Source: Lytechinus pictus
Taxonomy: Eukaryota
Assembly (NCBI RefSeq): GCF_037042905.1
Contig: NC_087252.1
Coordinates: forward strand, 682,001-746,000
Direction: 5' to 3'
DNA: 64,000 nt
In this document: one piece after another, positions 16,323 through 51,343 of the stretch
Position numbering within the stretch: position 1 is the stretch's first letter
Layout of the letters: every line of letters starts with the position of its first letter
Translations under genes and position numbers: made by a program
The notes under the pieces: model-generated
Database searches by the model: none
The model's input: the letters and a program-made list of their open reading frames with translations, nothing else
Told to the model about the DNA's origin: nothing

Positions 16323-17124
16323 GTGAGTATTATTTTTCACGTATTATAATGGATACATATCCGACCTGTATATGTATGCGCCTGTATGACTATTTCAGTA
16401 CAAGCAACTGCGCCATAATGTTTATTTCCGTTTTTATTATCTACAAAAGAGCACACACACACAGATGGTTTATTGGCACTTTACTAGTCATAATTATAGG
16501 GCATTATTAAATATAAGCAGCCATCGATCGTGTATATTAAATCATCATACTACTGGAGTAACTGGATATAAAAGACCATAAAAGCTTATGTACTTTTTTA
16601 TTAGGCATGTAATAGCAACAAAACCATTTGTATTCGTCGCGTATACTGCTGTACTTGTGTGTCTGCTCGGGTATAGGCTATTATGTTCAGGGACTTCCCG
16701 TTGAACTGCTAATTGACTTTGACGCCCAGGCTTTGACGACTATGGAAGGCCGATAGTGCCAAAAACGTGAACTACCATACGTATGCTCAAAAAAGAGTAC
16801 GTGTTCTTTGTTAAGAGTACGTGTTCTCCGTTAAGAGTACGTGTGCTCTAATGGACCAATCAGCGAGCTCGATTTGGGTTTTATGCACGCGTATGCTTTT
16901 ACCATACGTCAGCTTGTAGCAAACGTATGAGTTGAGAACGCATATGCTAATATCTCACTTCAGCTAAAAGCATAGGTATGCTCAGTCCATTCTGAAATTC
17001 GTTCTTTTCACTTTGACCAATCACATGGAGCCTTTCATTGAAGTTCGGAAGCGCGATTGCTAGTGCGCCATGCATGCATGATAATGCATATATGCACACA
17101 CTATACTACGTTATAGAGATCTAT

Positions 17125-18085
17125 TATTGTTAAAAGAGAAAATTGCGAGGGAGCAAAGCGACTGAGCGGGGGGAGGGGTGGTCTGGGAGGAGGGTGTCCC
17201 ACAGCAGGGAAAATTTTGCATTGTATCTCAAAAAACAAGATTTCTGGTGCATATTTGTGATGTGATTATGTGGTGTGTGATGTACTACTCAATAGTGGAA
17301 GTATTGTTAAAAGAGAAAATTGCGAGGGAGCAAAGCGAGCGGGGGGGGGGGGTGTCCCACAGCAGGGAAAATTTTGCATTGTATCTCAAAAACAATATTT
17401 CTGGTGTATATTTGTGATGTGATTATGTGGTGTGTGATGTACTATACAATAGTGGAAGTATTGTTAAAAGAGAAAATTGCGAGGGAGCAAAGCGACCCGA
17501 GCGGGGGGGGGGGGGGGTGTCCCACAGCAGGGAATGATTTTGCATTGTATTTCAAAAACAAGATTTCTGGTGCACATTTGGGATGTGATTATGCGGTGTG
17601 TTATGTACTACTCAAGAGTGGAAATTATCTTTAAAAGAGAAAATTGCAAGGGAGCAAAGCTACCAAGCGGAGGAGTGTGTGGGAGACGGTGTCCCCATTA
17701 TGCAGGGGCAGGGGAAAATAATTTTGGCGTCTCAAAAATAAACCTGTTTGAACCATGTTTGTGCTGTGATTATATTGATATGAATTATGACATACTCTGA
17801 AAAGCGGGAATTGTTGGAAGAAAAAAAACGTGAGGGAGCGAAGGGACCGGGCGGGTGAGGGTCTGGGAGGAGAGGTCCCCCTCCCAGAGCAGGGGAATAT
17901 TTTGTTGTCAGAAAAACATACTTTCTGTGCATATTTTGTGTTGTAATTATGTGGTGTGTGATGTACTCCTGAAAAGAAGATATTATCGTTGAAAGAGAAC
18001 ATTGCCAGGGAGCAGAGCGACCGAGCGGTGGAATGTCTGGGAAGGGGTGTCCCCATCTCAGGGCAGGGAATTTTTTGCATTTGGG
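17125..18085 (+). repeat. Degenerate tandem repeat, ~6 units of ~160-185 bp
   Basis: Units begin with ttaaaagagaaaattgcgagggagcaaagcga or variants at ~17130, 17307, 17464, 17631, 17815, 17989. Confidence 0.85.
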
Positions 18086-19677
18086 GTCTCAATAAAAGTT
18101 TTCTGATGCATGTTTGTACTGCGTCTTTGTGTGCGAATGGAATACTCCAGAATAACAGAAATTTATTCCCGTTAACCAACAGCACAAATAGTCAGTTTTA
18201 TTGGGGGTATATTAGGCAAAAATCCATGCAATTTACTCAAATGTGCGAACGAGCGAAGCGAGCGAGCGCTTCGCAAAGTATAAATATCCATGTCTAGTAA
18301 GGAAATGAAATGACGATTGAGAGACAAGAGAGTACATAATATATAAGCCATGCAGTTTTCCGGAATGGAATATAAGTTGTGGATATTGTAATAAAGCATT
18401 ACTTTGAAGTGGTATAATAAATGATCAATTTTTAGCAGATTGAGGACTGTTAAACTGTAATGCGACCGGGGGAAGAAATGCGGGCGTTTCCCCTCCCAGG
18501 TCTTATAGGGATTCGGAGGATTTTTGGATATCAAAAGCAAGAGTTATAGGGAAAGCATGTTAATCTAAAATTACATTATGTCCTCGTGAATATTTTCTGC
18601 ATATAAAGGTTAAATACAATGTCACAACTTGGAGAGAATGTACGAGTGCTAGAGAATGGAGGGAGCAAGCTTTGAAAATTGTATATTTAAAATATTTATA
18701 TATATAGTTAAGTGTTTTTCCTTTATTTCATAAACAAGAGATTAGTGTGATATGGTATTGTTTATTTGAGTTTATTTTGTCACCGACAAAAGCGCTACCC
18801 CTTCTTGCAAAATCCCCAAAGTAGTTTTGTGTACGGTGAGTGGGTATGGGCTTACGAGCACACCTTTGTGGGGAGGGGGGGGGGGACGGGAGGGCTTAAC
18901 AATATCAATATTGCCAGAATATCAGCCTTTCAGATTTTGTTAAGAGCAAGTAAGAAAAGTTGGTTATAAAAGCGTATGAATATTAATACATGTGCATTCA
19001 GACATAAAATTACTCCAAATTTTTGAGGGTATTTTCAGCACTTTGTTGCCGGAATATTTGCAAATGACTCCGGTTGAATGAATGAACTTTATTGATCTTC
19101 CTTGAAAAAGTAACATATAACAAGATACATGTACAATATCATATGCTAACGCATATGTTGAAAACGTTTAAAAGCAACAAATATCGATAATTAAAGGAAA
19201 GTAATGTAAAGACAAGGAAGACGAGGAGACCTTTAGAAGCCAGGCTTGTTATACGGTCCCTCAGTATTGAAACAATACATTATTTGTTTAAAGCAAAACT
19301 TGATTCTAGCTAAACTGGTTGATAATACTAAAAAAAAAAGAAATAGGTTGTACTAAGGTTATACAAGGATACATATGTGGTTAAAAATTATTTACAGATG
19401 AATAATGGATATGTTGAAGAAAAAAAAAAGTAGGTATAAAAAAAAAACCAGATAGATAGATAGACAAATAGATAGATAGAATAACGGGGGGAGCACGAAG
19501 TTACAAGATAGAAAATGGCAAGAGATAAGAGATTTGTAACAAAAACTATAATTGAAATGACTACTACATGTAGTACTTAATAACAGGAGTACATGTACAT
19601 GTACCAGTTGGTCGAGACATTTTACATAATTTATATTGCTAATCACATAGTTCTGCATGTATTTAAAAGAAAAACAA

Positions 19678-22600
19678 TTATACATCATAAATGTACTTAT
19701 TCAAAAATGAAAGTTTCAATTTCCTTTTAAAAACAGAAATACTAACAGACCCGGTAATGTTGGAGTTCAAAGAATTCCATAACTTTGGCCCTGTACAGAT
19801 CAGTGTTTTCTGAGCAAATATTGTCCTTGCATGAGGAATACGCAGTGCAGTAGCATTTCTTGTTGGGTAATTATGAAATTGGTTGTTCCTATGAAATAAA
19901 TATGCTAACGTCAATGGCAAATCACCTCTATGAAAATTATACATGAGTGACCCCAATTGCAGAAGATAAACATCTTCCAACTTCAAAACATGATGTTCAT
20001 AAAACAGAGGAGAAGTGTGAGCTAGAAAGTCAGCATTACTAACCGCTCGTATAGCTCTCTTTTGGACCAGAAATAATTTATTCAGCTGTGTCTTAAGAGA
20101 GTTACCCCATGCAAGGATCCCATAATTTATGTAAGGAAGAATCAAAGTTGAATATAGAATTTTCAGAATATGTGTTGGGAGATACAATTTAAGCCTGTTT
20201 AAAACACCTACATTCTTTGACAACAGCTTACATAATATGTTGATATGAGTTTTCCAATTTAGATTCTCATCAATATGAAGACCCAGAAATTTAGTTGTAA
20301 CCACTCTGTCAATTAATACACCATTGAAAGAGATATCACCAGGCAGAGTTTTGATTGTGTTGCTAAATAACATGTAATTAGTCTTCTTGAGATTGAGGGA
20401 CAATTTGTTTGCATGAATCCAGGTTGTTATTTTTTGCAACTCAATATTGACGGTATTCAGGAGATATTGAGGATCTTTATGGGAAAAAAATATATTGGAA
20501 TCATCTGCAAAAAGTAAAAAGGATAACAGTTTAGATGAATACTGGAAGTCATTAATGTACAATATAAACAAGAGGGGTCCTAAAAGTGATCCCTGTGGGA
20601 CACCACATGTTACACTATGTAATTCCGAATCCACACCATTTAAAGAAACAAACTGTTTCCTCTCTGCCAAATAACTTCTGAACCAGTGAAGGGCTGTGCC
20701 TCTCATTCCATAATATTCCAGTTTACTCAACAGAATATTATGATCTACAGTATCAAATGCCTTAGAGTAGTCCAGAAAAATTCCAATCGTGTGGGTGTGG
20801 TTATCAAGGGCATTTGCAATTTTATTAACAAAATGCAAAACAGCATGGCTTGTGGTATGTTTTTCTCTGAAACCGAATTGGAATTGAGAGAACACATTAC
20901 TCTCATTCAAAAACTTTACAGTTCGTACGTATACTAGCTTTTCTAAAAGCTTAGAAAAGGTTGTTAATAGAGAAATTGGACGATAATTTGTTAATAATTT
21001 TGCATTCCCTTTTTTAAATACAGGCACTACTTTAGCAATTTTCATCTTCAAAGGCACAGCCCCATTTAACAAAGACAGGTTAAAGATGTGTGCAAGAGGT
21101 TTCAATATGCCATCAACAACATTCTTAATTAAACCATTTCCAATACTATCACACCCTGGGCTTTTCCCTTTCTTTAAGGCACCTATTAAATCAAGAAGTT
21201 CCTTCTCTTTTATGGGCGAGAGGAAAATACTTTGCTTGTTTGGTGACTTAAGATAATGATGAAATTGTTGTTGAAAGTCCGGTATTTCCCTTGACAAATT
21301 AGGGCCAATATTACAAAAATAAGTATTAAATTTCTCCACAATTATCTTTCGATCATTGATCAAGTTGCCATCAACCTCCAACTCATTTATATTTGATACT
21401 TTTTGCTTTCCTTTGAATAAGCTATTAATGACCTTCCATGTTGCCTTAATGTCATTACACGCAACCTTCAATTGATTAGCATAATATTCTCGTTTAGCAG
21501 TGCGCAAAAGTGAAGTGAGGATATTTCTATAACTGGAATATTTTCTTCGTGAATTTTCACATTTACTCACTTTATATTTGTGAAAAAGTCTATTTTTCTT
21601 ATTAATTGATCTCAGTAAAGAATGCGTAATCCATGGCATTTTAGGCAATTTCTTATGACTAGGACGGTCCACAGATCGAAATGGGACATTATCATTATAC
21701 AATAGCATGAATTTATCAAAAAAAAAGTATTAAATGAACTATCTACATCATGATCTGAGAGGACATCATCCCATGTAGTTGCCATTAAAGCATTCTTAAA
21801 CTTGGCAATGTTTTCAGGGCTATTAACCCGAGACCGTTTATTTGCAGTATCAATAAATGGACGCCTGAGCAAAGCCATTCTGCAATATACAGGAAAATGA
21901 TCTGAAAGATCGGAAATGACTATACCAGATTCTGGTAAAGGATGAACATTGCAGAAAATGTTATCGATAAGGGTAGCAGACGTGTTTGTTATTCTTGTTG
22001 GTTTAGTAATCAGTGGAACAAAAGAAGATGAAATAAACATATTCACAATTTCATTAGCCTTATCATCTGAATCGCAGTTAAGCAAATTAATATTAAAATC
22101 ACCCATTAAAAACACACGTTTGTTGTTCAGTAAATTGTTCGTAATTATTGTCTGTATCTGTTCGGAAAATGACTTCAGATTACTATGAGGAGGCCTATAA
22201 ATAACTCCTATAACAACATTTTTCCTGCCTGGAAGTAATAGCTCAACAAAAAAAGTTTCTAAACTCTCATTCATAATAGTGATATCTGGACAAAAGTTAA
22301 AATCAAATCTGGATGGGACATAGACAGCCAAACCACCACCTCTTTTCTTATCCCTGTTATTAGTAACTAAACTAAAACCAGGAATATTATACAGACTTGT
22401 GAGTGTGTCTGGAGAAAACCAGGTCTCAGTAATACCTATAACAGGGGAGGTATTAAGTTAATTGACAAAGACACTAAAGAGATCAACATTCCTGCACATG
22501 CTCCGCACATTCATGTGGATAAGAGTAAGTGCCTGATTTTCAGGTTCACCCTGGATACTAGTAAAAAACTCATTTTCAGCAAAATACTTGCAGTTCGAAG

Positions 22601-22688
22601 ATACCACATTATGCTCATCATCAAAATGCAAGAAAGTGTTTGTGTTTGACTAAAAAAATTCACTTATGTTTCCTTCATTTTCAGCCAT
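19678..22688 (-). pseudogene. LINE ORF2 (APE endonuclease + reverse transcriptase), disrupted, copy 1
   Basis: ITETW, YRPP, GDFN, SDH and QFGF, GVPQGS, FADD motifs; TAG at codon 13, extra TAA at 22458-22460, T9 frameshift at 21718-21726. Confidence 0.93.
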
Positions 22689-23012
22689 TACATTGATAGG
22701 AATAATGTACAAAGTAATGTGCGACCATGCAGTCAACAAAACGTGATACACATTTCAAAATAGTTCTCTTCCTCATACAAGGTAAAACATTTACAACAGT
22801 TGACGTGCTCACAAAGATGGGAAAAAAGAAAGGAAAGGAAAGAAAGGATACAGCATAACATACTAAATATAGCATAGAAAATATAAAAATACTACCTATA
22901 CATCTATTCTGAGGTGAGAAAAATAAATGAAAACAAATGGTAAAAGAATTAGAATTATCGCCAAAGGGCCTAAAATAAGGTAACCCTACTCCACTGATGG
23001 AAAGGAGCTGCA

Positions 23013-23738
23013 CTACTTTAAATTGTCAATGTCTCTAATGTCAGTTATAAGCTTTTTCTTGAGGCCACCAGCTGAGTCCTTTAGCCCCGCGTAGATGCGT
23101 CCGTCCACGGCCCACACCTTTTCCACCTTCCCTGCGTGTCGGGCCGCATGATAGAGTTTTTGTCTTCGCTGTGTCAGGTCTTCGTTGAGATAAATCGACG
23201 ATCCTTTCAAAGAAGGCCTCCCACGGACGAACTTGAACTTTGCGTTCTGAGACGCAAACTTGACAATGATGGGGCGTGAACCAGATCTTTCGGCAGCCCA
23301 AGCAGCCTTGACAGGTCCAAGGCGGTGGAACCTGTCGATGTCAGATAGGGATATTTCCACCCCCATCCTCTTCGCAACATTTCCCACCACCTCGTCGGTT
23401 GACTCTCCCTCCTTCTCCTCAATGCCGTAGATACGGATGTTCTTCCTTCGGGAGTACTGCTCCATATCGTCAGTCTTGACTTGAAGCGCCAGAATCGACT
23501 GCTGGGCGGCTTCCTTCCTCTCCCTCAGCTTCTCTATTTCAGCAGCTTGAGCATTCGCCTTCATCTCTAGCTCCAAGATTTTGGACTCCTGCTCCTCAAG
23601 CCTTGCTGCAAGGCTAGAGATTACAGCCTCCTTCACCATTACCTGCAACAGCTGCTTAAAATCAGAATTGGATCCCAATTCTCCAACAACACGGCGGGCA
23701 ATTTCAGCAGTGTCCGATTTTGCTTGTTTGGGTGACAT
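23013..23738 (-). CDS. LINE ORF1 protein (coiled coil + RRM + C-terminal domain), copy 1
   Basis: 241-aa ORF with heptad-rich region, EQYSRRKNIRIYGIEE, RPIIVKF and IYLNEDLT motifs typical of L1-like ORF1. Confidence 0.9.
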   Translation of the reverse strand: MSPKQAKSDTAEIARRVVGELGSNSDFKQLLQVMVKEAVISSLAARLEEQESKILELEMKANAQAAEIEKLRERKEAAQQSILALQVKTDDMEQYSRRKNIRIYGIEEKEGESTDEVVGNVAKRMGVEISLSDIDRFHRLGPVKAAWAAERSGSRPIIVKFASQNAKFKFVRGRPSLKGSSIYLNEDLTQRRQKLYHAARHAGKVEKVWAVDGRIYAGLKDSAGGLKKKLITDIRDIDNLK

Positions 23739-24969
23739 GGTGCTGGAACGATCAAATAAATCAACTCAGGGGAAGGGAGCTCAAGCACAGCTTTGCAGAC
23801 CACAAGGTCACATTCCACAGTTATGACTCCAGAAAGTGAGAGCACATGAGCACATTAAAGTAGAGCAGAACTGACCATGCTGACACAAAATCCAATATAT
23901 GGGGTACTGCACAAAAATCAAGTCATTCCCAGATTCAATACTCACTTGGCCTAATTGGCAATAAGAGAAGGTAAATTAAGACATTATATGCATGTTCCTG
24001 ATGACAAAATCGATAGCCAAAGGATGCTATTGCATATTAAACACAGAAGACCGCGAAAGCAGGTAAAATGATATTGGTGATGATGATGGAGATTACTAGT
24101 AACCTGTATGTATGTATGTATGTGTTCCCCGATTATCATCAATTTATAAAATATTTGGGGGCCAACACGCCCCGGGCTCATACGCCTATATGGGAAAGAT
24201 ACAGGTATACCGGTAGCAGGGGCCCGGGATGTGCGCCATACAAGAGGGCAGGTGATGTGAATCGAAGAAGGAAATCTTTTACGAAGGACATTTTTGACAC
24301 AATATCAAGTCTAAAATGAATATGATTGTTTTCGCTTTTTTTTTTGGCATCCATCAATTTTTTTAGGGGGGCACCTGGGGGCACACGATATTTTGCCCCC
24401 CCCCCCCTCGTAGCTACGCCCCTGCCCCCTCCCCATTTTGCCGGAAAGGTGCGTCGGTTATTGTTTTTTCTCTGTTTCAATATAGTCAACCTCAGCAGTC
24501 TAAAACCTTTTTGCAAGAATAATCCTTCCTAAATATTATAATTTATTATTAATAATTTCCTATTTTCTGAGATGAAAACAAGAGGTTATGAGCATTATTT
24601 GCAATCATGAATATGATTATCTCAACAATCGACGCGTTCGCGAAGCGCGAGTTAAAAAATTGATTTTCCGACCTCAAACTGGACACTCTATACACTATTG
24701 GTAATCTTGAAGAATAATGTGTTTCTAAATCTGTTGAGTTTGGCCGTGAAGACTAGCGATGATCTGGCAACCCTGTTTCTAAGTAAACATTTCATTACAG
24801 ATGATTATTTGTTACTTTCAAGAGATAGAGATTTTTACAAAGCAAAATTTGATAAATGCAAATGTACTTTTGATACAAAACAGATGGAATATTTTTGGAA
24901 AGAACATAACAAATAAATAATAATAATAATAATAACAATAATAATAATAATAATAATAAATAATATGAA

Positions 24970-25444
24970 CAAAAAGTCGAAACGGGAATATTATTGTAAC
25001 AAATTCAAAGAATTCGCGAAAAATGATCTAAAACAAAAATGGAAAGTAATAAAAGAACTCCTACCAGCCAAAAAGTCGGAGTCTGAAATAATTTTAAGAT
25101 AGAACATGAAAGTGTGAAAATTGAAAACAATGTAGAAATTGGTAATGTATTTAATCAAATGTTTAATAGTTTCGCAGATGAAATAAAGGGTTCCAGTACG
25201 CAAAGCCAACATGATGTACATACTGATGGCAACTATATGCAAAATGTACCAACCACATAGGATACCTTTTCTTTTTCAGATATTAAAGAGGATTTTGTAT
25301 TAAAAGAACTGAATAGTATTGATACGCGTAAAGCCTACGGTCTTGATGGCTTACATCCTACGTTGTTAAAATGTGCGCAGTACAGTTTGATATGATTAAT
25401 GAATGGATGGACAGAAACGAAATGTATATTAACGTCGACAAAAC
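24970..25444 (+). pseudogene. Old internally deleted LINE ORF2 fragment, cut at the amplification junction (also 32386-32860)
   Basis: Translates in pieces to SKREYYCNKFKE...WKVIKELL, RKAYGLDGLHPTLLK, WMDRNEMYINVDK. Confidence 0.75.
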
Positions 25445-27093
25445 GTCCAGAATGTCTGGGAAGGGGTGTCCCCATCTCAGGGCAGGGAATTTTTTGCATT
25501 TGGGGTCTCAATAAAAGTTTTCTGATGCATGTTTGTACTGCGTCTTTGTGTGCGAATGGAATACTCCAGAATAACAGAAATTTATTCCCGTTAACCAACA
25601 GCACAAATAGTCAGTTTTATTGGGGGTATATTAGGCAAAAATCCATGCAATTTACTCAAATGTGCGAACGAGCGAAGCGAGCGAGCGCTTCGCAAAGTAT
25701 AAATATCCATGTCTAGTAAGGAAATGAAATGACGATTGAGAGACAAGAGAGTACATAATATATAAGCCATGCAGTTTTCCGGAATGGAATATAAGTTGTG
25801 GATATTGTAATAAAGCATTACTTTGAAGTGGTATAATAAATGATCAATTTTTAGCAGATTGAGGACTGTTAAACTGTAATGCGACCGGGGGAAGAAATGC
25901 GGGCGTTTCCCCTCCCAGGTCTGATAGGGATTCGGAGGATTTTTGGATATCAAAAGCAAGAGTTATAGGGAAAGCATGTTAATCTAAAATTACATTATGT
26001 CCTCGTGAATATTTTCTGCATATAAAGGTTAAATACAATGTCACAACTTGGAGAGAATGTACGAGTGCTAGAGAATGGAGGGAGCAAGCTTTGAAAATTG
26101 TATATTTAAAATATTTATATATATAGTTAAGTGTTTTTCCTTTATTTCATAAACAAGAGATTAGTGTGATATGGTATTGTTTATTTGAGTTTATTTTGTC
26201 ACCACAAAAGCGCTACCCCTTCTTGCAAAATCCCCAAAGTAGTTTTGTGTACGGTGAGTGGGTATGGGCTTACGAGCACACCTTTGTGGGGGAGGGGGGG
26301 GGGCGGGAGGGCTTAACAATATCAATATTGCCAGAATATCAGCCTTTCAGATTTTGTTAAGAGCAAGTAAGAAAAGTTGGTTATAAAAGCGTATGAATAT
26401 TAATACATGTGCATTCAGACATAAAATTACTCCAAATTTTTGAGGATATTTTCAGCACTTTGTTGCCGGAATATTTGCAAATGACTCCGGTTGAATGAAT
26501 GAACTTTATTGATCTTCCTTGAAAAAGTAACATATAACAAGATACATGTACAATATCATATGCTAACGCATATGTTGAAAACGTTTAAAAGCAACAAATA
26601 TCGATAATTAAAGGAAAGTAATGTAAAGACAAGGAAGACGAGGAGACCTTTGGAAGCCAGGCTTGTTATACGGTCCCTCAGTATTGAAACAATACATTAT
26701 TTGTTTAAAGCAAAACTTGATTCTAGCTAAACTGGTTGATAATACTAAAAAAAAAGAAATAGGTTGTACTAAGGTTATACAAGGATACATATGTGGTTAA
26801 AAATTATTTACAGATGAATAATGGATATGTTGAAGAAAAAAAAAAGTAGGTATAAAAAAAAAACCAGATAGATAGATAGACAAATAGATAGATAGAATAA
26901 CGGGGGGAGCACGAAGTTACAAGATAGAAAATGGCAAGAGATAAGAGATTTGTAACAAAAACTATAATTGAAATGACTACTACATGTAGTACTTAATAAC
27001 AGGAGTACATGTACATGTACCAGTTGGTCGAGACATTTTACATAATTTATATTGCTAATCACATAGTTCTGCATGTATTTAAAAGAAAAACAA

Positions 27094-30000
27094 TTATACA
27101 TCATAAATGTACTTATTCAAAAATGAAAGTTTCAATTTCCTTTTAAAAACAGAAATACTAACAGACCCGGTAATGTTGGAGTTCAAAGAATTCCATAACT
27201 TTGGCCCTGTACAGATCAGTGTTTTCTGAGCAAATATTGTCCTTGCATGAGGAATACGCAGTGCAGTAGCATTTCTTGTTGGGTAATTATGAAATTGGTT
27301 GTTCCTATGAAATAAATATGCTAACGTCAATGGCAAATCACCTCTATGAAAATTATACATGAGTGACCCCAATTGCAGAAGATAAACATCTTCCAACTTC
27401 AAAACATGATGTTCATAAAACAGAGGAGAAGTGTGAGCTAGAAAGTCAGCATTACTAACCGCTCGTATAGCTCTCTTTTGGACCAGAAATAATTTATTCA
27501 GCTGTGTCTTAAGAGAGTTACCCCATGCAAGGATCCCATAATTTATGTAAGGAAGAATCAAAGTTGAATATAGAATTTTCAGAATATGTGTTGGGAGATA
27601 CAATTTAAGCCTGTTTAAAACACCTACATTCTTTGACAACAGCTTACATAATATGTTGATATGAGTTTTCCAATTTAGATTCTCATCAATATGAAGACCC
27701 AGAAATTTAGTTGTAACCACTCTGTCAATTAATACACCATTGAAAGAGATATCACCAGGCAGAGTTTTGATTGTGTTGCTAAATAACATGTAATTAGTCT
27801 TCTTGAGATTGAGGGACAATTTGTTTGCATGAATCCAGGTTGTTATTTTTTGCAACTCAATATTGACGGTATTCAGGAGATATTGAGGATCTTTATGGGA
27901 AAAAAATATATTGGAATCATCTGCAAAAAGTAAAAAGGATAACAGTTTAGATGAATACTGGAAGTCATTAATGTACAATATAAACAAGAGGGGTCCTAAA
28001 AGTGATCCCTGTGGGACACCACATGTTACACTATGTAATTCCGAATCCACACCATTTAAAGAAACAAACTGTTTCCTCTCTGCCAAATAACTTCTGAACC
28101 AGTGAAGGGCTGTGCCTCTCATTCCATAATATTCCAGTTTACTCAACAGAATATTATGATCTACAGTATCAAATGCCTTAGAGTAGTCCAGAAAAATTCC
28201 AATCGTGTGGGTGTGGTTATCAAGGGCATTTGCAATTTTATTAACAAAATGCAAAACAGCATGGCTTGTGGTATGTTTTTCTCTGAAACCGAATTGGAAT
28301 TGAGAGAACACATTACTCTCATTCAAAAACTTTACAGTTCGTACGTATACTAGCTTTTCTAAAAGCTTAGAAAAGGTTGTTAATAGAGAAATTGGACGAT
28401 AATTTGTTAATAATTTTGCATTCCCTTTTTTAAATACAGGCACTACTTTAGCAATTTTCATCTTCAAAGGCACAGCCCCATTTAACAAAGACAGGTTAAA
28501 GATGTGTGCAAGAGGTTTCAATATGCCATCAACAACATCCTTAATTAAACCATTTCCAATACTATCACACCCTGGGCTTTTCCCTTTCTTTAAGGCACCT
28601 ATTAAATCAAGAAGTTCCTTCTCTTTTATGGGCGAGAGGAAAATACTTTGCTTGTTTGGTGACTTAAGATAATGATGAAATTGTTGTTGAAAGTCCGGTA
28701 TTTCCCTTGACAAATTAGGGCCAATATTACAAAAATAAGTATTAAATTTCTCCACAATTATCTTTCGATCATTGATCAAGTTGCCATCAACCTCCAACTC
28801 ATTTATATTTGATACTTTTTGCTTTCCTTTGAATAAGCTATTAATGACCTTCCATGTTGCCTTAATGTCATTACACGCAACCTTCAATTGATTAGCATAA
28901 TATTCTCGTTTAGCAGTGCGCAAAAGTGAAGTGAGGATATTTCTATAACTGGAATATTTTCTTCGTGAATTTTCACATTTACTCACTTTATATTTGTGAA
29001 AAAGTCTATTTTTCTTATTAATTGATCTCAGTAAAGAATGCGTAATCCATGGCATTTTAGGCAATTTCTTATGACTAGGACGGTCCACAGATCGAAATGG
29101 GACATTATCATTATACAATAGCATGAATTTATCAAAAAAAAGTATTAAATGAACTATCTACATCATGATCTGAGAGGACATCATCCCATGTAGTTGCCAT
29201 TAAAGCATTCTTAAACTTGGCAATGTTTTCAGGGCTATTAACCCGAGACCGTTTATTTGCAGTATCAATAAATGGACGCCTGAGCAAAGCCATTCTGCAA
29301 TATACAGGAAAATGATCTGAAAGATCGGAAATGACTATACCAGATTCTGGTAAAGGATGAACATTGCAGAAAATGTTATCGATAAGGGTAGCAGACGTGT
29401 TTGTTATTCTTGTTGGTTTAGTAATCAGTGGAACAAAAGAAGATGAAATAAACATATTCACAATTTCATTAGCCTTATCATCTGAATCGCAGTTAAGCAA
29501 ATTAATATTAAAATCACCCATTAAAAACACACGTTTGTTGTTCAGTAAATTGTTCGTAATTATTGTCTGTATCTGTTCGGAAAATGACTTCAGATTACTA
29601 TGAGGAGGCCTATAAATAACTCCTATAACAACATTTTTCCTGCCTGGAAGTAATAGCTCAACAAAAAAAGTTTCTAAACTCTCATTCATAATAGTGATAT
29701 CTGGACAAAAGTTAAAATCAAATCTGGATGGGACATAGACAGCCAAACCACCACCTCTTTTCTTATCCCTGTTATTAGTAACTAAACTAAAACCAGGAAT
29801 ATTATACAGACTTGTGAGTGTGTCTGGAGAAAACCAGGTCTCAGTAATACCTATAACAGGGGAGGTATTAAGTTGATTGACAAAGACACTAAAGAGATCA
29901 AAATTCCTGCACATGCTCCGCACATTCATGTGGATAAGAGTAAGTGCCTGATTTTCAGGTTCACCCTGGATACTAGTAAAAAACTCATTTTCAGCAAAAT

Positions 30001-30103
30001 ACTTGCAGTTCGAAGATACCACATTATGCTCATCATCAAAATGCAAGAAAGTGTTTGTGTTTGACTAAAAAAATTCACTTATGTTTCCTTCATTTTCAGC
30101 CAT
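27094..30103 (-). pseudogene. LINE ORF2, copy 2
   Basis: 304-aa APE ORF and 676-aa RT ORF split by a T8 tract (29134-29141); in-frame TAG at 30065-30067 after ATG at 30103. Confidence 0.93.
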
Positions 30104-39795: not shown

Positions 39796-40432
39796 CAAAA
39801 AGTCGAAACGGGAATATTATTGTAACAAATTCAAAGAATTCGCGAAAAATGATCTAAAACAAAAATGGAAAGTAATAAAAGAACTCCTACCAGCCAAAAA
39901 GTCGGAGTCTGAAATAATTTTAAGATAGAACATGAAAGTGTGAAAATTGAAAACAATGTAGAAATTGGTAATGTATTTAATCAAATGTTTAATAGTTTCG
40001 CAGATGAAATAAAGGGTTCCAGTACGCAAAGCCAACATGATGTACATACTGATGGCAACTATATGCAAAATGTACCAACCACATAGGATACCTTTTCTTT
40101 TTCAGATATTAAAGAGGATTTTGTATTAAAAGAACTGAATAGTATTGATACGCGTAAAGCCTACGGTCTTGATGGCTTACATCCTACGTTGTTAAAATGT
40201 GCGCAGTACAGTTTGATATGATTAATGAATGGATGGACAGAAACGAAATGTATATTAACGTCGACAAAACCAAAGTTATGATATATGACTCAGTACAGAA
40301 AATCAACAAATAAATGTTAAATTCATATCATGTCAAAATCTAAAATTGGAAAACGTAGATAGATTCAAATATCTTGGAGTTACTATTGACCCACTTATGA
40401 AATGGACAAAGCATATTAACACTGTGTTAAAA
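39796..40432 (+). pseudogene. Old LINE RT fragment, continuing past the amplification breakpoint
   Basis: Continues INVDKTKVM ... VDRFKYLGVTIDPLMKWTKHINTV beyond 40270. Confidence 0.8.
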
Positions 40433-42261
40433 AAAGAGTTAAAGAAAGGGAAACGTTTCCGGGGGACCCCCCCCCAAAAAAAAAAAAATAATAATAAATA
40501 AATAAATAAATAAAAAGAGAAAGAAGACAAACGGATCCGGGGTCCAGGGGAGCCATTACCCCCCCCCCCCGGAAAAAAGACAAACAAAAAAGGAAGATAT
40601 AAGACATAAAGAAAAAGGTAAATGGGAGAGAGAATTTGAAGATAAAGAAACGGATCCAGTGAAACTGGAGGGGTATCCCCTTCGCCTGCCCCTCATGAGG
40701 AAGAGAGAGAGAGAGAGATACAAAGAGGGGGATAGGAGGGGTAAGGAAAAGGGGAACGAACAGGATAAAGATGGATAACAGATCTAGGGACTGATAGGCG
40801 TCACCACCCAGGCGCGGATCCAAGATTTCGTGGGGAGGGGGGGCCCAAGTTTGACCTGATTTTTGGCGCCCATGTGTACTTTTCGAAAAATGGCGCCCCC
40901 TCCCTCCCGGCCAGGCTAACTTAAATGTAACTTAAATGCCTTAAATGTATTTTGAATTATCTTATTACATCATTAATCACATAAAAAAAAAGGCAATTAA
41001 AGACCATTTTTTTAATGTGTTCTTTAAAAAAAAATCCATGAATATATAATGTAATATCAATGGGAGCGCGAAGCGCGAGCGATTTTTTGGGGTCTCAATT
41101 TGGTTTAACTTCTCACCAGAGTAGGCCCTACTAGAATATTGTGTGAACGGGAGCTGTAGTTTCTTTACTAGTTATTTAGAATAGCCTTCAATAATATCAA
41201 TGATAACCTCTTGGGAATAATGCAATCTCGAAGCAATCGACCCAATCTCCTCATCAGTGGCGAAGCTGTGATTTATTCAGCATGGTTGCAAGGGGGGGGG
41301 GGGGCTTGTTGAACTTTTGTAGAGGGCACCAAGATAAAAAAAAAAAAAAAAAATGGGGGGGGGGTAGAAGTTAAAGAAATTCCGAAATTTTATTCTTAAA
41401 AACACATCGAGGTATCTCACAAGGCCTAAATAAATAATGATAACGCGAAGCGCGATATATTTGACATAATATTTGGAAAATAATATTATATTTCACCATA
41501 ATCCCTTTCCTTTTTTCTATTTTTTTTCTTGGTCGTGATTTTTTTTTTTTTTTGGGGGGGGGGCAAAACGCCCATGTCCTAATAGTCATTTTTTAGCTTT
41601 ACTCTATAAACAACATTAATGTGCAATAATCTCATAAGCCCTATGCGAGATAAAAAATAATGAAATTTCATGTATTTTGACCTGAAAATTGAACATTCTG
41701 GACAATGTTTGTGAACCTAAACAAGATGCGTATTTAACTAGATAGTCACTACGAGCGCGAAGCGCGAGCATAAATTTTTAATGTGCGTTCTGGCCTGGTC
41801 GAAAAGGGACCTGTTAAGGAAGTTTTGCAGTTAGCCATTAAGACGATACATATTTCGACGATTGAATAATGCGAGCGCGAAGCGCGAGCTGAACATTTTT
41901 GATATTCCAACCTAAAAAAATTGATTTCATGTGTAAGGACTGATTACACATACTCCCTGGCTTTTATTAGAGAGTACCTGTTAGTACCGATCAGTAAGGA
42001 CTGATTTTAGGAATTCATGAAGAGCAGACATCTCACCAATCAACTAATGCGAACGTTAGCACGGACAGGAAATGTTTTATATTAAGACCTTAAAATTGGG
42101 CAATCACTTTAAGTAGTCATGAAAAAGAAGCAAATGTCACTACATAAAACAATAACCATCATTTACACAGGTCCAAAATACTGGTATGGTATTCACCAAA
42201 GCCTTAAACAAAATATAAATATAAACACCTTAAACAAACACCTAAAGCTCTCATTCCTTAA

Positions 42262-42865
42262 AGGTCAAGTCCACCCAAGAAAATTGTTGATTTGAATCGA
42301 TAGATAAAAATCAAACAAACATAACACTGCAAATTTCATCGAAATCGGATGTAAAATAAGAAAGTTATGACATTTTCAAGTTTCCCCTTTTTTCACAAAA
42401 CAGTAAAATGCACAACTCAGCGATATGCAAATGAGAGAGTCGATGATGTCCATCACTCACTATTTATTTTGTTTTTTATTGTTTGAATAATACAATATTT
42501 CAATTTTTACAGAATTGACAATAAGGACCGACTTAACTTAACCATAAACTGTTAAAATAATGGTAAATCCACATGTTCAGTGAAAAATAAAACTTTGTTT
42601 CACTTGACAAGGAGGAGAAAATTAGAATATTTCATATTTCATATAATAAAATACAAAAGAAATAGTGAGTGGATGACGTCATCAGTCTGCCAATTTGCGC
42701 ACCGACCAGGATGTGCATATAACTGTTGTGTGAAAATTTAGCGAAACTTTAAAATGTCATAACTTTCTTAATTTACATCCGATTTTGATAAAATTTTCAG
42801 TGTTTTGCTTGTTGAATTTTTTTCCTTTTTATCAAATCAACTTTTTGTTGTGGTGGACTTGTCCT
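42262..42865. mobile_element. TTAA-flanked non-autonomous element (Kolobok-like); partial relatives at ~43960-44242 and ~50118-50515
   Basis: TTAA on both sides; TIR aggtcaagtccacc / ggtggacttgtcct. Confidence 0.8.
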
Positions 42866-44869
42866 TTAATGAGTACAACGAATAACACATATGAACTGCT
42901 TTCTCTTTTCCACGATACTTGACTCTCGACCCTATTTCTCTTTCCCCTCCCCTTTCCCTTTTCTCTGCTGGACACCTAACCGTTTTTTGTTTTTTGTTTT
43001 ATTCCCCCAGTTTTTAATATTCCCTTCTCCCCCCTAATTTATGTAGTCACAGCCCCCCCCCCCCCCTTTTTCCCTTGTTATTCAAACCTATTTTGCCGTT
43101 CTTCATATATGGTCAAGATTGTCCTACTTTACTTTTAATTACAAACGATTAAGATTACTACAAATTTATCCCAAGGGACTTACCATTACAAGCTTTGCTT
43201 TTTAATAAGTCCCTCATTTTCATTTTCACATGCTAACTGTAATCTGTAATTAGTCTAATTATCAAAATGTGTTTGGAACAAAAAGAATTATATACATTTC
43301 GACTATTTCCTACGAATTTGTTAATTAATTATTGAAGTATTCTTATGACACTTATTCTGTTATGTACATTCATACATATGTATATATGTTTGTTATGTTT
43401 ATTATCAGAAAATGGAAGTGAAATAAACTAAACTGAAACTGAAATTGAAACTAACTCGAATTGCGAGGAAATATATTTGGTGTATATTGATTTGAAAACG
43501 GGAGGTTTTAGTACAACAAGATTATACATCTCGTTAAACAGTCTATGCGAGCACCAGGAACAATGACGACATAGGCCCTGAGCAAACTGTTTCATAAAGT
43601 CATGAAAAACATGCTTCTTATGTAACATACTTATGATATAATATAACATTATAATAAACAATAATTTCTTCTTTCTACATTACGTTTCTCTTCCTTTCTC
43701 CCTCTTTTTCTCCTTTTCCCCGTTTTTTATATATATATATTTTTTTGTTTGGGGGGGGGGGGGCACGTGCCCCCCATGCCCCCTGGTAGTTACGCCACTG
43801 TATAGGTATACAGAACTCACCAATCAAAATGCGAGCGACAGCGCTAGCTCATAGGCCTTCATTTTTGACAATCGAGACACCTGAAAAGGAATATTTTGAG
43901 AATCTTATATGAAATACACGAAGATAATAGGTAGGCCTACAACATTTTAAAGATTCGCTTAATTTCACAAACCAGTTATATTCACATCCTTGTCTGTATG
44001 CAAATGAGGAGACTGATGACATCACTCACTCACTACTTCTTTTTGTATTTTAGTGTATGAAATATGAACTATTCCATTTTTCTCCGTTGTCATGTGAAAC
44101 AACGATTAATTCCTCCCTGAACATGAGCAATTAGCATTGTTTAATACATCCGATTTTGATGAAATTTTCAGCATAATGCTTGTTTGATTTTTCTCTATTT
44201 ATTCAAATCAACATTTTTTTGGGGGGTGGACTTGTCCTTTAAGAAATGAAGGCGAGCGCGAAACGCTAGCCGAAAACTTTTTTAATGATGAAATGAAAAG
44301 GACATTTTCAGTTGTTAGATTAGAATATAAAATATTTTCAGCTTGTGCTTCTCGTTCGCATAAAAAAAACTGTGAGGTCGGGATGCGTATATAATTAAAC
44401 AGTGATGCGAGTGCGAAGAGCGAGCTCAATTTTTTTATATACTGACTCAAGAAGGACTCTTTTAAGGTATAATTCCTATTCTAAAAGTTTTTCCTTTTTC
44501 TCTTCGTCTTTTTTTCTTTCCTTTTTCTTCGCCACCATGGGAGGGGGGGCAAAAACTTTGCCCCCTGGATCGGCCTATGTATATTGACTTGAAAAACACT
44601 AACATTTTAAGGACTTATGTACGTGTGATCGATGGAGAGGATACACACCTCACTAATCAAATATTGCGAGCGCGTAGCGCCAGCTGAATTTGATATTAAC
44701 CCCTTTTCTGACCCTGAACAGGATACCTATCTCGCCAAACAAACTTCAAACTCGAGCACATTGATTTTTGTCTATTATCGTAAAAACGGGATATTTTAAA
44801 TCAGCCGCATTAATTTAACCTTTTTGGGCAGGAAATAAATTTCACTATAAACAGGCTATACGAGCAATG

Positions 44870-46665
44870 TTGCGCCCCCGGTCGAACATGAATTTGCATG
44901 GAGCCCCCTAAGTTCAAGGTCAATTTGGCGCCCTCGGTCGAACATGAATTTGGCGTCATGTGAAATATCACTTTGCCCTCCCCCTTCTGAAACATGTATT
45001 TGTCGCTTTATGGTCAAACATCAAATTAGCGCTCCCCTAGTTCGAACATCAATTTGGCGCTCCGCTAGTTTGAACATCAATTCGGCGCTCCCCTAGTTCG
45101 AACATCAATTTTGCGCCCCTCCCAGTTCAAACATCAATTTGGCGCCCCCATCTAGTTCGAAAATTAATTCGCCCCCTCCTCCTTGTTCAAACATCAATTC
45201 GGCGCCCCATGGTTCGAACGTCATTTTGGCGCCGCCTAGTTCTAACATCAATTTGGCGCCCCCCTTGTTCGAACATCAATTTGGCGCCCCAAGTTCGAAT
45301 AGCAATTCGGCGCCCCCTGGTTCGAACATCAATTTGGCGCCCCTAGTTCGAACATTCAATCGGCGCCCCCCGATGTCGAACATAAATTTTGCGCCCCTAC
45401 GTCGAACATCAATTCGGTGCAACCCCCCCCCTACGTCGAACATCAATTTGGCGCCCCCAGTTCAAACATCATTTTAACATCCATTCGAACATCATTTTGG
45501 CGCCCTCCTAGATCGAATATCAATTCGGCGCCCCTACATGTAGGTCCAACATCAATTTGGCGCCCCAAGTTCGAATAGCAATTCGGCGCCCCCTAGTTCG
45601 AACATCAATTTGGCACCCCTAGTTCGAACATTCAATCGGCGCCCCCCGATGTCGAACATAAATTTTGCGCCCCTACGTCGAACATCAATTCGGCGCACCC
45701 CCCCCCCTACGTCGAACATCTATTTGGCCTCCCTAGGTCGAACATCAATTTGGCGCCCCCAGTTGGAACATCAAATTGGCGCCCCTAGTTCGAATATCAA
45801 TTCGGCGCCCCCTAGTTCAAACATCAATGTGGTGCCCCTAGTTCGAACATTAATTCGGCGCCCCCCCCCCTAGTTCGAGTATCAATTCGGCGCCCCTACA
45901 TGTAGGTCGATCATCAATTCGCCCCCCCCCCCCGTTCGACCATCAATTCGACCCCCAGTTTGAACATAATTTTGGCATCCCTTCGAACTCAATTTGGCTT
46001 CCCTAGTTCGAATATCATTTCGCCCCCCTAGCTCGAGTATCAATTTGGCGCCCCCTAGTTCGAACATCAATTCGGCGCCCCCTAGTTTGAGTATCAGTTT
46101 GGCGCCCCCCTAGCTCGAACATCGATTCGCCCCCCCTAGTTCGAGTATCAATTTGGCGCCCCCAGTTCCAACATCATTTTAACATTCCTTCGAACATCAT
46201 TTTGGCGCCCTCCTAGATCGCATATCAATTCGGCGCCCCTACATGTAGGTCCAACATCAATTTGGCGCCCCATAGTTCGAGTATCAATTTGGCGACCCCA
46301 ATTTTCAACATCAATTCTAAGCCCCCCTAGTTCGAGTATCAATTTGGCGCCCCCCTAGTTCGAACATCGATTCGGCCCCCTCCCCCCCCTAGTTCGAGTA
46401 TCAATCTGGCGCCCCCAGTTCAAACATCCTTTTAACATCCCTTCGAACATCATTTCGGCGCCCTCCTAGTTCGAATATCAATTCGGCGCCCCTACATGTA
46501 GGTCCAACATCAATTTGGCGCCCCTAGTTCGAATATCATTCCCCCCCCTAGCTCGAGTATCAATTTGGCGCCCCCTAGTTCCAACATCAATTTGGCCCCC
46601 AGTTCGAACATCATTTTGACATTCATTCGAACATCATTTCGGCGCCCTTTGGGTTCGAACATCAT
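44870..46665 (+). repeat. ~27-30-bp minisatellite (ggcgcccc-tagttcgaacatcaattt) with higher-order repeats
   Basis: Dozens of tandem units; blocks such as ~45275-45435 recur at ~45550-45720. Confidence 0.95.
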
Positions 46666-47536
46666 TTTCTTTCCTCCTCTTCCTCTGTTTTTCTTTTCGT
46701 CCTTCCCCCTCTTCCTCTCCCCTTTTCTTATTTTCTTTCCCCCCTTTCTCTCTCTTTTTTCTTCTCTTCTTTCTTCCCTCTTCCTCTTTCTCCTTTTTTC
46801 TCCTTTTCCTTTTCCCCTCTTCCTTTCTCTTTTCCCCCCTCTTCTTTCCCCTCTTCCTCTTTTTTCTCCCCCCTCCCCCTCCCTTTTCTTCTCTTCCTTC
46901 CCCCTCTTCCTCTTTTTTTCTCTTTCTTTCCCCTCTTTTTCTCCTTTTTTTCTTCTTTTCTTTCCCCTCTTCTTTTTTCTTCTTTTCTTTCCTTTCTCTT
47001 CTTCTTTTTCTTTCCTCCCTCCTTTTTTTCCTTTTCTTTCCCCTCTTCCTCTTTTTTCTTCCCCCTCCCTTTTCTTCTCTTCCTCTTTTTTCTCCTTTTC
47101 TTTCCTCTTTTTCCTCTCTCTCTTTTTCTTCTCTTCCTTTCCCCTCTTCCCCTCTCTCTCTTTTTTTCTCTTTTTCCTTTCCCTCTCTTTTTCCTTCTCT
47201 TTCCCCTTTTCCTCCCCTTCCTTCCCTTCCTTCCCCCTCTTCCCTTTTTCTTCTTTTCTTTCCCCCTTTCCTCTCTCTTTTTCTCCTCTTCTTCCGTCCC
47301 CCTCTTCCTCTCTCTTTTCCCCTCTTCTTTTCCCCTTTCTCTCTCTTCTCTTCTTTCCTTCTTCTTCCTCTTTTTTTTTTCTCCTTTTCTTTTCTCCTAT
47401 CTACTTTCCTCTTTTCTTTCCCCCCTTTTCCTCTCTCTTTTTTCTTCCCTGCTTCCCCTCTTCCTTTCTTCTTTTTCTTCTTTTTTCCCCCCTCTTCCCC
47501 TCTTTTTTCTCTTTCTTTCCCTCTCTTCTTTTTTTT
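46666..47536 (+). repeat. ~870-bp polypyrimidine (CT) tract
   Basis: Almost only C and T on the + strand. Confidence 0.97.
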
Positions 47537-48024
47537 AGCCGAAGGGGGGGGGGCAAGGCCCCCTCGGCCCCCCCCATGGATCCGCGCCTGTCACCACCCC
47601 CCCCCCCAAAAAAAAAAAAATAAATAAAAAAAAAAATAAAAAAAAATAAATAAAAAGTGGAACACGGAAGAGAACAAGAAGACAAAGAATAGAAGAAAAA
47701 GGATATATATTTGGAAAAAAATATGAAAAAATAAGAGAGAGGTGGATGACAGATAAGTCAAAGAAAAGGAAAAAAAGTGGGAAGATAAAGAGGAAATTAC
47801 CTTGTACATTATGTACTTATTTCGACTCATTCCAATCGTGTAAATATGTAATTATAATGATTTATTTCAATAAAACATACAAAAAAGAGGAGAGCAAATG
47901 ACATGTATAGGCTCAGTTAGAATAGAGGAACAAAAATTCCCTTTTTTTTCTTGGGGGGGGGGGGGCCGGAGGGCAAGCCCTTCCAGTCCTTTGGATCTCT
48001 TCTATATATATATATATATATATT

Positions 48025-48672
48025 TCAGGTGAATTTGACGCCCCCTAGGTCGAACATCAATTTGGCGCCCCCTAGGTCGAACAACATAATTTTGCGTACC
48101 TAGGTGAAACATCAACTTGACGACCCTCTGTTTAAGGTCAATTTGGCGCCCCCTAGATCCAACATCAATTTGGTGCCCCCCTCCAAGGTCGAACATGAAT
48201 TTGGCGCCCCTTAGGTGGAACATAAATTTGGCGCCCCCATGTTTAAGGTCAGTTTGGCGCCCCCTAGATCCAACATCAATTTGGTGCCCCCCCCCCTCCA
48301 AGGTCGAAAATCAATTTGGCGCCCCTTAGGTGGAACATCAATTTGACGCCCCCATGTTTAAGGTCAGTTTAGCACGCCCCCCTTACAGGACAATTTGGCG
48401 CCCCTAAGTTTAAGGTCAATTTGGCGTCCCCCATGTCAAACATCAATTTGGCGCCCCCAAGTTTAAGGTCTGTTTGGTGCCCCCGTTACATGTTAGTTTG
48501 ACGCCCCCAGTGGAATATCAATTTGGCGCCCCCCCCCCCCGTTGAATATCATTTCGGTGCCCACTAGGTAGAACATCAATTTGGCGCCCTGATGATCGAA
48601 CATCACTTTGGCACCCCCTCCCAAGTTTAAGGTCAGTTGTCGCCCCCTCATTACAGCTCAATTTGGCACCCC
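48025..48672 (+). repeat. Second, diverged GGCGCC minisatellite array followed by a short CT tract
   Basis: Units aacatcaatttggcgcccc and tttaaggtcagtttggcgcc. Confidence 0.9.
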
Positions 48673-51343
48673 TCTGTCTCTCTTCCTTTTTGTTCGCCTT
48701 TTTTCTCTCTTTCCCCTCTCCCCCCCCCCCCCTCCCTTTTTCACCCCCTTCCCTCTCCTTGTTTTTCTTCTCTCTATCCTCCCCCTTTTCACTCTTTTTC
48801 TCTCCGGCCTTTTCTTTTTTTTTCTTTCCTTCCCCTTATTGCCGCCTCCTTTTCGCCTACTACCCCGGGGGCCAGGGCCTCTAAAGCCCCCATCCCACCA
48901 GAATACGCGCATGATATACCACCGTCTTCATCATATGCAGGGTGGATCGAGCCCCCGGATCGAGCCCCAACCCATACTACAAACTGACCTAGGACTGGTG
49001 GAAGAACAACTTTCCAGTATTTTGATACAGAAACAGACCTTAATCCTATTGAGAAACGGAGGGCTATCCTTAAATTATTAGGTACTTCCGGTATAGTTAG
49101 ATTCAATCACAATTCGAGTAGTGTTGTAAAACAGCAAAAATCCGGTGAATTTTCATCCAGTATAACAGCCGAGGTATCTTCAAGAGTACTGAGGTGAATA
49201 GGGCATAAATTGTCTGCATAAAATCTTTCCTCCACTAAGTTCCAGCCTGCAACCTACACTCTCTTTTCTTGGGGGGGGGGGGGGGGGCATCAATTCTGAC
49301 ACACCCTATATATACCCCCCTACACACAAGCACACACTATCTAGTGGTATCGCTCAGCGCACTGAACTATACCACTACGTAGAGGTATATTTCGGTGGTT
49401 CAGTGGCAGACACGGACGACCACGTGCATTCACTACAGTGAGTTTGGCACAGGATCTGCTATAACGGAATTTCTGATTGGACGGTCACAAACACTTCACC
49501 CAAAGTCTGCGCATACGTATGCTATTCGCTAAATAACCATACGTATGGTATATACCATACGTATGCTACAAGCTGACGTATGGTAAAAGCATACGCGTGC
49601 ATCAAACCCAAATCGAGCTCGCTGATTGGTCCATTAGAGCACACGTACTCTTAACGGAGAACACGTACTCTTAACAAAGAACACGTACTCTTTTTTGAGC
49701 ATACGTATGGTAGTTCACGTTTTTGGCACTATCGGCCTTCCATAGACGACGACTGTCGAGCTGTCGTGATCTTATCAAATATATTGACGTACTTTGGCGG
49801 ATACAGGGTCGAGCCCCCCCGGGGGGGGGGGGGCACTTCCATTGACGAGTGGATACCATGCGCGACCATTGGGTCTCGAAAAGCACCCTAAACAAGTATT
49901 TTCCATATTCTGAAAATGCACCCCTCAACAAGTATTGGCGTGTGAAACCCTACCCTTAACAAGTATTGGGGGAAAAAACCTACCCTTGGCAAGTATTCCC
50001 TGAATTGAACCCCTAAACATCCGTTACGAACACAATTATTTGCCTTTCGTAACTGATCGTTTGAATTTGAATGTGAACTATCCAACCTTTCTGCGATAAG
50101 TACGATTGTAAGTAAGTTTAAAGGACAAGCCCACGCAAACAAAAAGTCGATTTAAGTAAAAAGAGGAATATCAAACAATCATTATAATGACAATTTCATC
50201 GAAGTCGGATGTAAAATTGGAAAGTTGTGATATATTAAAGTTTTGTTTAATTTTACAAATCAGTTATATGCACATCCTGGTCGGTATGCAATTGAGGAGA
50301 CTGATGACGTGATCCACTCACTATTTTGTATTTTACAATATGAAATATTTAAACATTTCAATTTTCTCCTCGTTGTCAAGTGAGACAACGACTAATTCCT
50401 CCCTGAACATGTGGAATTAGCATTGTGTAAAACTATGGTTCAGTCAAGTTGGTCCTTTTTGTCAAATCTGTAAAAAGAAATGAAATATTGTATAATGCAG
50501 ATTATAAAAACAAAAGTGGGTGGTATGGGCGTTATGACTGCGCGAAGACTTAAGTACTAATGAGAATTTGGTATTCTGAAAAGTCTCATAGCGACCAATT
50601 AGCGGACTTTCCAATGGGGAAAGATAATGGTGAAAAAAGGTCCATTAAGTCTCATCATCTCTTGCTAATTGTGACTTTCATTTCGTACAAATGTCATCAA
50701 ATCGGTTCACTACTGTGCCCAAAACTATAGGAGGAAAATTAAGGAGAAAGGTATATAAAAAAGGAATAGAATAAAGGGAAAGAAGGTAGTATATCATGGA
50801 TAGAAACAGGTAAAATAAGGAATAAGGAACATATTTGCTAATAAAGAAATAAAAAAGAGGGAAAAGATAACATGAATTTTGTACATCTAAGGGAAATATG
50901 ACTATTATTTTTCTATATTTTCTTTGGTTATTAGCATCATACAGTATTTTATTTTTGCGCATTATTTTGACAATAATGAGATTGCCAAATCACGGTAGGT
51001 ACAACAATGTTCAGGGACGAATCAATCTTTGTTTCCAACAATAAAAAATAAGAATAGAACCCTCTAGTATTTAAATGAAATAAATACTCTCTCAAAGAAT
51101 ACCCCCCCCCCAAAAAAAAAAAAAAAAAAAAAAAAAATAGTGAGGTGAGGTGAGTGATACCATGGTTGATTCAAAGATTATTTGACGGATTGTATTTTTC
51201 TTCTGTATTTGTTTTTCTGTTGGGTTGAAATAAACACGAATTGGAATATGAATATGAATTTCTCTGAATGGTTTTCCAAACAGAAGCTTGAGGATTAGGC
51301 CTCTGACAAGTCTTTACTCGGGAGGCGAGTGCCTAGTATCACG

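Follow-up and report, generated by a model that had tools for sequence, protein, structure and literature searches.

A 33-kb repeat-laden element with IS3EU/GingerRoot-type ends in the first intron of a Lytechinus pictus gene

We have characterized a 33-kb segment of Lytechinus pictus DNA that is bounded by nearly identical terminal inverted repeats (TIRs) and lies within the first intron of a gene. The segment occupies positions 16741-49744 of a 64,000-nucleotide stretch (hereafter the window; NCBI RefSeq assembly GCF_037042905.1, contig NC_087252.1, positions 682,001 to 746,000 of the forward strand), the numbering of which is used throughout. We describe the ends of this element, the duplication that flanks them, their superfamily signature, the nesting of its interior, a mosaic middle copy within a triplicated unit, and the splice junction that spans it. 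Judged by their sequence, the ends very probably belong to the IS3EU/GingerRoot superfamily. The history that we somewhat favor is that of a non-autonomous IS3EU/GingerRoot element that made a fairly recent jump together with older repeats as its core and grew later by nesting and unequal crossover; a recent jump with this core, of about 6.6 kb, is likely.

The outer inverted repeat pairs 16741-16929 on the plus strand with 49556-49744 on the minus strand over 189 bp without gaps, with two mismatches (16882 and 16922; 98.9% identity), and is the longest inverted repeat of the window. Its inner edge is sharp, identity collapsing at position 190 counted from the tip, and the tips read TATGG...CCATA. 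An earlier note, made from the sequence alone, had described near-perfect repeats of 190 bp with two mismatches; the mismatches hold, and the additional base pair is gained only when the flanking C/G is counted. Behind its tip the left TIR contains a CATACGTATG palindrome and three AAGAGTACGTG repeats, which start at 16793, 16813 and 16833; their number had been noted correctly, but their period is 20 bp rather than 19 bp. With at most one mismatch allowed, the window has 11 matches to CATACGTATG where 1.0 would be expected; none of 100 shuffles reaches 11, and seven of the 11 matches, including all five exact copies, lie in the two ends. As had been proposed, this terminal motif continues subterminally: the left subterminal region (16930-17122, plus strand) has a degenerate copy at 16971, and the right one (49290-49555, minus strand) has two further exact copies (49512 and 49538). 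Contigs of four public runs (of 22) were aligned to positions 15760-17290, which include the left end and not the right. Those from one organism, here organism A, which appears to be a related species (about 90% identity on the promoter side and 92-97% in the left subterminal region), carry the exact-CATACGTATG base at 16975, where the window copy is degenerate. The two subterminal regions are unlike overall but share CATACGTATG, and their inverted local alignment was reached by 0 of 1000 shuffles. A scan of the window found no further TIR copy and no inner partner ends inside the element. Because CATACGTATG continues into both unlike subterminal regions and inner ends are absent, we treat the segment as a single element, in agreement with the earlier view that the TIRs do not come from separate small elements. 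The inner subterminal edges (17094-17120 and 49330-49395) also show a weak direct likeness with an 11-bp exact match, and an extra hairpin lies on the right; the match is not significant (E 4.6, the direct subterminal alignment being reached by 24 of 1000 shuffles), although a duplication where DNA was captured internally would leave such a likeness.

GACGAC directly abuts both element ends (16735-16740 and 49745-49750). From base composition, the chance of an exact 6-mer flank match is about 1.3e-4, and the earlier reading of these flanks as a 6-bp target-site duplication (TSD) is favored by the end signature described below. The target site is a GAC run with two units on the left and three on the right, and the flanks of this one insertion site fit duplications of 6 bp, 4 bp (ACGA, with CTATGG ends, as had also been suggested), 3 bp (GAC) or 0 bp equally. 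The duplication length is therefore ambiguous from the flanks alone.

The superfamily assignment draws on published IS3EU ends. IS3EU and GingerRoot make up a single lineage, in which IS3EU families carry TA..TA termini and, as a rule, a 6-bp TSD (PMC10045372); fungal IS3EU families end in TAYGG..CCRTA (PMC12730594). Read by eye from Table S1 of the latter paper, 26 of 27 IS3EU consensus 5' ends start with TAYGG, and the extended pattern TAYGGARG-N9-GMCA fits 19 of the 27 (15 of 15 rows used to draw the pattern and 4 of 12 rows read later). Within the window this pattern is found only at 16741 (plus strand) and 49744 (minus strand), against 0.04 expected, and we regard it as strong, though not blind, support for IS3EU/GingerRoot. 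The signature fixes the tip on the T at 16741, which favors the 6-bp duplication; the 4-bp reading would be excluded if the assignment holds. A TIR longer than 30 bp, as expected of the superfamily, is present (189 bp, 98.9%), as are TA..TA termini of the form TAYGG..CCRTA, and the integrase-like DDE transposase of autonomous members was not found. It is accepted practice to classify elements that lack genes by the terminal 20-50 bp (PMC7805219). The earlier note could not assign the superfamily from the termini; the TAYGG tips together with the extended signature make IS3EU/GingerRoot assignable. The same 21-bp end pattern, drawn from rust-fungus IS3EU families, also fits this animal element and could serve for cheap classification of gene-less copies. 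Searches with the exact TIR tip gave 0 matches in metagenome and viral contigs, and TIR motif patterns gave 0 in prokaryote genomes and 0 in viral contigs; three metagenome matches to these patterns were rejected as chance, none being alignable to the TIR.

Coding capacity was assessed with Pfam on 185 stop-to-stop frames of at least 33 aa from the interior outside the long interspersed nuclear elements (LINEs), with the satellite and CT-tract regions 44880-47530 and 48030-48600 left out. No transposase or integrase family was found among these frames at E<=0.1, only weak and unrelated matches below the cut-off; no known IS3EU/GingerRoot transposase was used as a query, and a very decayed remnant may be present. 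The long open reading frames (ORFs) of the element are those of LINEs only (reverse transcriptase, RT, and endonuclease), with no polymerase, integrase, capsid or transposase ORF among them, which leaves the Polinton/Maverick gene set unrepresented. Both sets of frames thus bear out the earlier observation that a transposase ORF is lacking, and we consider the element non-autonomous because no transposase was found.

The element lies in intron 1 of a host gene. A contig of run X19 matches non-coding exon 1 (15962-16322, plus strand; provisional 5' end) with 0 differences. A contig of the same run leaves the window at 16322 and goes on for 30 letters, which have a single match in the window, at 51284-51313. 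The skipped segment opens with GTGAGT and closes with a pyrimidine tract and CAG, defining a GT...AG intron of 34,961 bp (16323-51283, plus strand). Exon 2 (51284-51359, plus strand) contains the start codon at 51344 and is in frame with a large exon of 1,379 bp (51772-53150), in which Pfam returned no match; for the ORF at 51774-53147, a comparison with 4673 candidates gave a single homologue, from Strongylocentrotus purpuratus, with 76% identity over 298 aa. Splicing can join the exons of the host gene over this interval. By our own arithmetic the spliced contig is about 10 times deeper than the intron contigs of X19, which may share a source with the assembly and is of unrecorded run kind. 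Near-identical X19 contigs extend from exon 1 over the outermost 25 letters of the TIR, where 31 were required to count as a bridge, and likewise from the TIR to the satellite. If the element and one copy of the duplication were removed, intron 1 would measure 1,951 bp; this one element supplies 94% of the intron and makes it 18-fold longer. If an empty allele exists, the locus would be a natural experiment on intron length. In the spliced leader (16320-16322 joined to 51284), a very short upstream ORF spans the junction of exons 1 and 2. Directly upstream of exon 1 lie a foldback miniature inverted-repeat transposable element (MITE; 15408-15749) and an adjoining related repeat (to 15954). Contig depth at 15760-15967 is about 3e5-1e6 in the runs of organism A, indicating that the repeat is extremely abundant there.

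In the interior, a tandem repeat with a period of 157-191 bp (17123-18121; about six units, of which five compared are 69-97% alike) is followed by three copies of a 7.4-kb unit, at 18031-25444, 25450-32860 and 32866-40270, the last with an 8-bp deletion in the LINE ORF1. Copy 2 is preceded by the same 5-bp junction insert as is found at 32861-32865, so that both junctions have it in common. The units differ from one another by 11, 19 and 11 substitutions (19 between copies 1 and 3), or 0.15-0.26%. Copy 2 is a mosaic, its 5' part like copy 3 (to about 23516) and its 3' part like copy 1 (from 23622); 15 of 18 informative sites fit a single crossover (permutation p 0.017, two columns private to copy 2 being left out). 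To judge from this pattern, copy 2 would be the product expected of unequal crossing-over in a two-copy allele, and an assembly haplotype switch would give a similar mosaic. The triplication as a pure assembly error was rejected on the grounds of the 19 substitutions between copies 1 and 3 and the new 5-bp junction.

Each unit contains a near-intact LINE on the minus strand (19072-23830 in copy 1), with ORF1 at 23013-23738 and endonuclease and RT at about 19678-22649, the latter reading frame being broken at a T run. We take this LINE to be of the CR1/L2 type. An 8-bp candidate duplication around it is not significant (about 0.2 expected, an estimate), and the 5' boundary is therefore approximate; the LINE ORF1 gave no match in viral contigs. 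A decayed LINE RT fragment on the plus strand (39790-40460; several frames, stops, frameshifts and a large internal deletion) is cut by the triplication breakpoint, and its 5' part also ends copies 1 and 2. Outside the element, at 4460-5776 on the minus strand, another decayed LINE RT with stops has 32-51% protein identity to the triplicated LINE.

Right of the triplication, 40809-47590 is a nested non-autonomous element of 6.8 kb whose TIR is 16 bp long and whose flanking duplication, TCACCACC, is 8 bp. From its CAG...CTG ends and 8-bp duplication we presume it to be hAT-like. Within it lie a CT tract, a 26-bp satellite and, at 42255-42872, an old MITE; a second block of 26/27-bp satellite lies at 48023-48650. 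In the scan for inverted ends with direct flanks, pairs of at least 8 bp numbered 0 in 5 block shuffles; several other hits of the scan were palindromes inside long TIRs or 5-bp chance matches. Removal of the two extra units, then the LINE, then the nested hAT-like element reduces the whole to 18,169, 13,410 and 6,620 bp in turn, the first figure confirming an earlier estimate of about 18 kb before the triplication. The 6,620-bp remainder comprises the left satellite, MITE pieces and the decayed LINE fragment. The near-intact LINE and the triplication look young. That the interior holds material more decayed than the TIRs, as the earlier note had it, is true of the decayed LINE piece, but much of the rest, including the MITE at 42255-42872, lies within the separate hAT-like element. 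One old MITE family is represented in the window by five copies or pieces, inside and outside the element (1846-2260, 7790-8285, 42255-42872, 43942-44249 and 50118-50515), which are about 70-85% alike where aligned.

The relative youth of the ends was judged from divergence. Between the two TIRs, 2 of 189 positions differ (95% interval 0.13-3.8%), compared with 20 of 129 for the arms of the inner MITE (p 6e-7) and 7 of 87 for a TIR piece in organism A (p 0.005), where TIR-like contigs are about 92% identical. In one contig of organism A (run X4), the left subterminal region continues into the satellite with 8 differences and 3 gaps over 286 letters; because this contig carries the subterminal-satellite join, the join is older than the TIR pair looks. 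Divergence does not set the order of triplication and jump (p 0.04 and 0.095, the latter for the TIR against copies 1-3). In all four runs the depth of TIR contigs is low relative to the neighboring repeat, which is a hint only, depth not being copy number.

Taken as a history, an integrase-like DDE transposase encoded elsewhere in the genome would bind the 189-bp ends, probably at the 20-bp-spaced repeats and the CATACGTATG palindromes. Insertion would follow from a 6-bp staggered cut into the GAC run in intron 1 of the host gene. The load at the time of the jump was probably about 6.6 kb of older repeats (the left satellite, the decayed LINE piece and MITE pieces) and perhaps as much as 18 kb. 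Further growth would have come from nesting of the 6.8-kb hAT-like element and the 4.8-kb LINE, and from a 7.4-kb tandem duplication followed by one unequal crossover that yielded the third copy; these steps may have come before or after the jump. Of the earlier proposal of a recently mobilised giant with cargo, we retain one non-autonomous TIR element with a probable 6-bp TSD; mobilization as a giant is established for neither 33 nor 18 kb.

Several points weigh against this account. A transposase was not found in the element, and the end signature was drawn up after the window ends were known, from fungal rows of which some are subfamilies of others. Identity between TIRs dates an insertion poorly, since conversion can keep ends alike; the interval on 2 of 189 (0.13-3.8%) overlaps the divergence of the triplication (0.15-0.26%), and the arms of the MITE may already have differed when it inserted. 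The X4 contig that contains 16925-17029 runs 411 letters toward the TIR without aligning to it, so that linkage of TIR to interior is not demonstrated in organism A. Among the matches listed for the four runs, there was no empty-site contig over 15760-17290, and no second copy of the element was seen there or in the window; cover by run X1 at 16644-16747 is assignable neither to a filled nor to an empty site, and the left flank is mostly without cover in the runs of organism A, a gap to which we give no weight. On its exon-1 side the spliced contig extends over only about 30 letters, and its source may be an allele that lacks the element. Finally, about 26 kb of the total 33 kb can be separated into nested events and could have been added in place.

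This last point leads to the alternative that survives best, which we nonetheless consider unlikely: an element of about 0.8 kb, consisting of the left and right ends, was split open in place, whether through a single event (relocation of a block or filling of a gap) or through many successive insertions, and never moved as a large unit. Besides the separable 26 kb, it can draw on the 11-bp direct match at 17094 and 49330, which brackets the interior, and on the unaligned sequence adjoining 16925 in the X4 contig. However, the 11-bp match is at chance level, as given above, the scan found no inverted repeat or TSD bounding the interior as a whole, and the subterminal-satellite join is present in organism A. 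The TIRs also look far younger than the decayed interior pieces, which argues against slow filling unless the TIRs were converted. If growth did happen in place, the locus would be an ordinary nest of repeats. Somewhat more doubtful still is a single recent jump of the entire 33 kb, triplication included. The TIRs and the duplication are intact, and divergence cannot place the triplication after the jump (p 0.095, TIR against copies 1-3); yet the low divergence of the copies (0.15-0.26%) and the recombinant nature of copy 2 are what late local events would produce, transposition efficiency is reported to fall with the distance between TIRs (PMC6431247), and no second copy is known. It is improbable that the ends come from a different superfamily, one that makes 3- or 4-bp duplications, and that the 6-bp reading is an effect of the GAC run. 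The 3-bp and 4-bp readings do fit the flanks equally well, and AcademX, for example, has a TSD of 3-4 bp (PMC10045372), but the 12-position IS3EU end signature is in register at both ends. Two independent small elements facing each other by chance can practically be dismissed: both ends adjoin GAC units, which would ease a chance match, but partner ends are absent in the 64 kb scanned, the 6-bp flank match is exact (p about 1e-4), and the subterminal regions are unlike yet share a motif.

A bolder extension of the preferred history, the recent jump of a smaller core, which we hold only tentatively and think rather unlikely, is that a low-copy sea urchin IS3EU family still moves gene-less loads of 18-33 kb and that one jump lengthened the intron about 18-fold. 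If this were true, satellites and a near-intact LINE would have been carried along to the new site, and the insertion would segregate against a 2-kb empty allele, offering a direct test of the effect of intron inflation on expression.

The TU elements of sea urchins and the FB foldback elements of Drosophila are non-coding and have long TIRs with short internal repeats and a variable middle. The present element resembles them in being non-coding, in the short repeats of its TIRs and in its variable middle, and differs in its short TIRs (189 bp) with three repeats and in its IS3EU-like end signature. TAYGG tips, a GC-rich target and, on the favored reading, a 6-bp duplication liken it to IS3EU/GingerRoot. 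GingerRoot TIRs measure 100-150 bp (PMC6839031), compared with 189 bp here. In GingerRoot copies that carry captured DNA the DDE region is often missing (it is kept in 6 of 22; PMC6839031), and no transposase was found in the present element. Its 33 kb exceed the 3.9-12.9 kb of Selaginella GingerRoot (PMC6839031) and the 5.6-13.4 kb of the fungal IS3EU consensus rows seen (PMC12730594), whereas the stripped core (6.6-13.4 kb) falls within the known IS3EU/GingerRoot size range; the cargo here is repeats, and in GingerRoot it is gene fragments. Pack-TIRs and Pack-MULEs likewise enclose host-type DNA between TIRs and can be single-copy and formed after insertion (PMC8277862), but the interior seen here is made up of repeats; no captured gene turned up in it, and a donor locus was not identified. 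Teratorn and Polinton also span more than 20 kb between their ends (PMC6431247), and Polinton makes 6-bp duplications, the length favored here; they are large through genes of their own, whereas here the length comes from nested repeats and tandem triplication. IS3EU elements appear in repeat tables and are barely studied (PMC11934779), making up 0.01% of another urchin genome (PMC11316814). We found no paper on large sea urchin IS3EU elements in literature from which subscription journals and Repbase Reports were mostly absent, and IS3EU and sea urchins occurred together only in genome reports within that coverage. The element is a clear example of known processes.

The window contains a second gene-less TIR element at 9292-14968, of 5.7 kb, with TIRs that are 94% alike (217 of 230) and a 9-bp duplication, AGCCCGCCC. 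This element is presumably Mutator-like. Its TIR has an 11-bp stretch in common with the 20-bp repeats of the IS3EU-type TIR, and two further structures are nested within it, an inverted pair at 12511-14668 (90%) and, at 12932-14217, a hAT-like element flanked by an 8-bp duplication. On the other side of the host intron, a 41-bp tandem repeat with a higher-order structure of 103/268 bp occupies 56069-56638.

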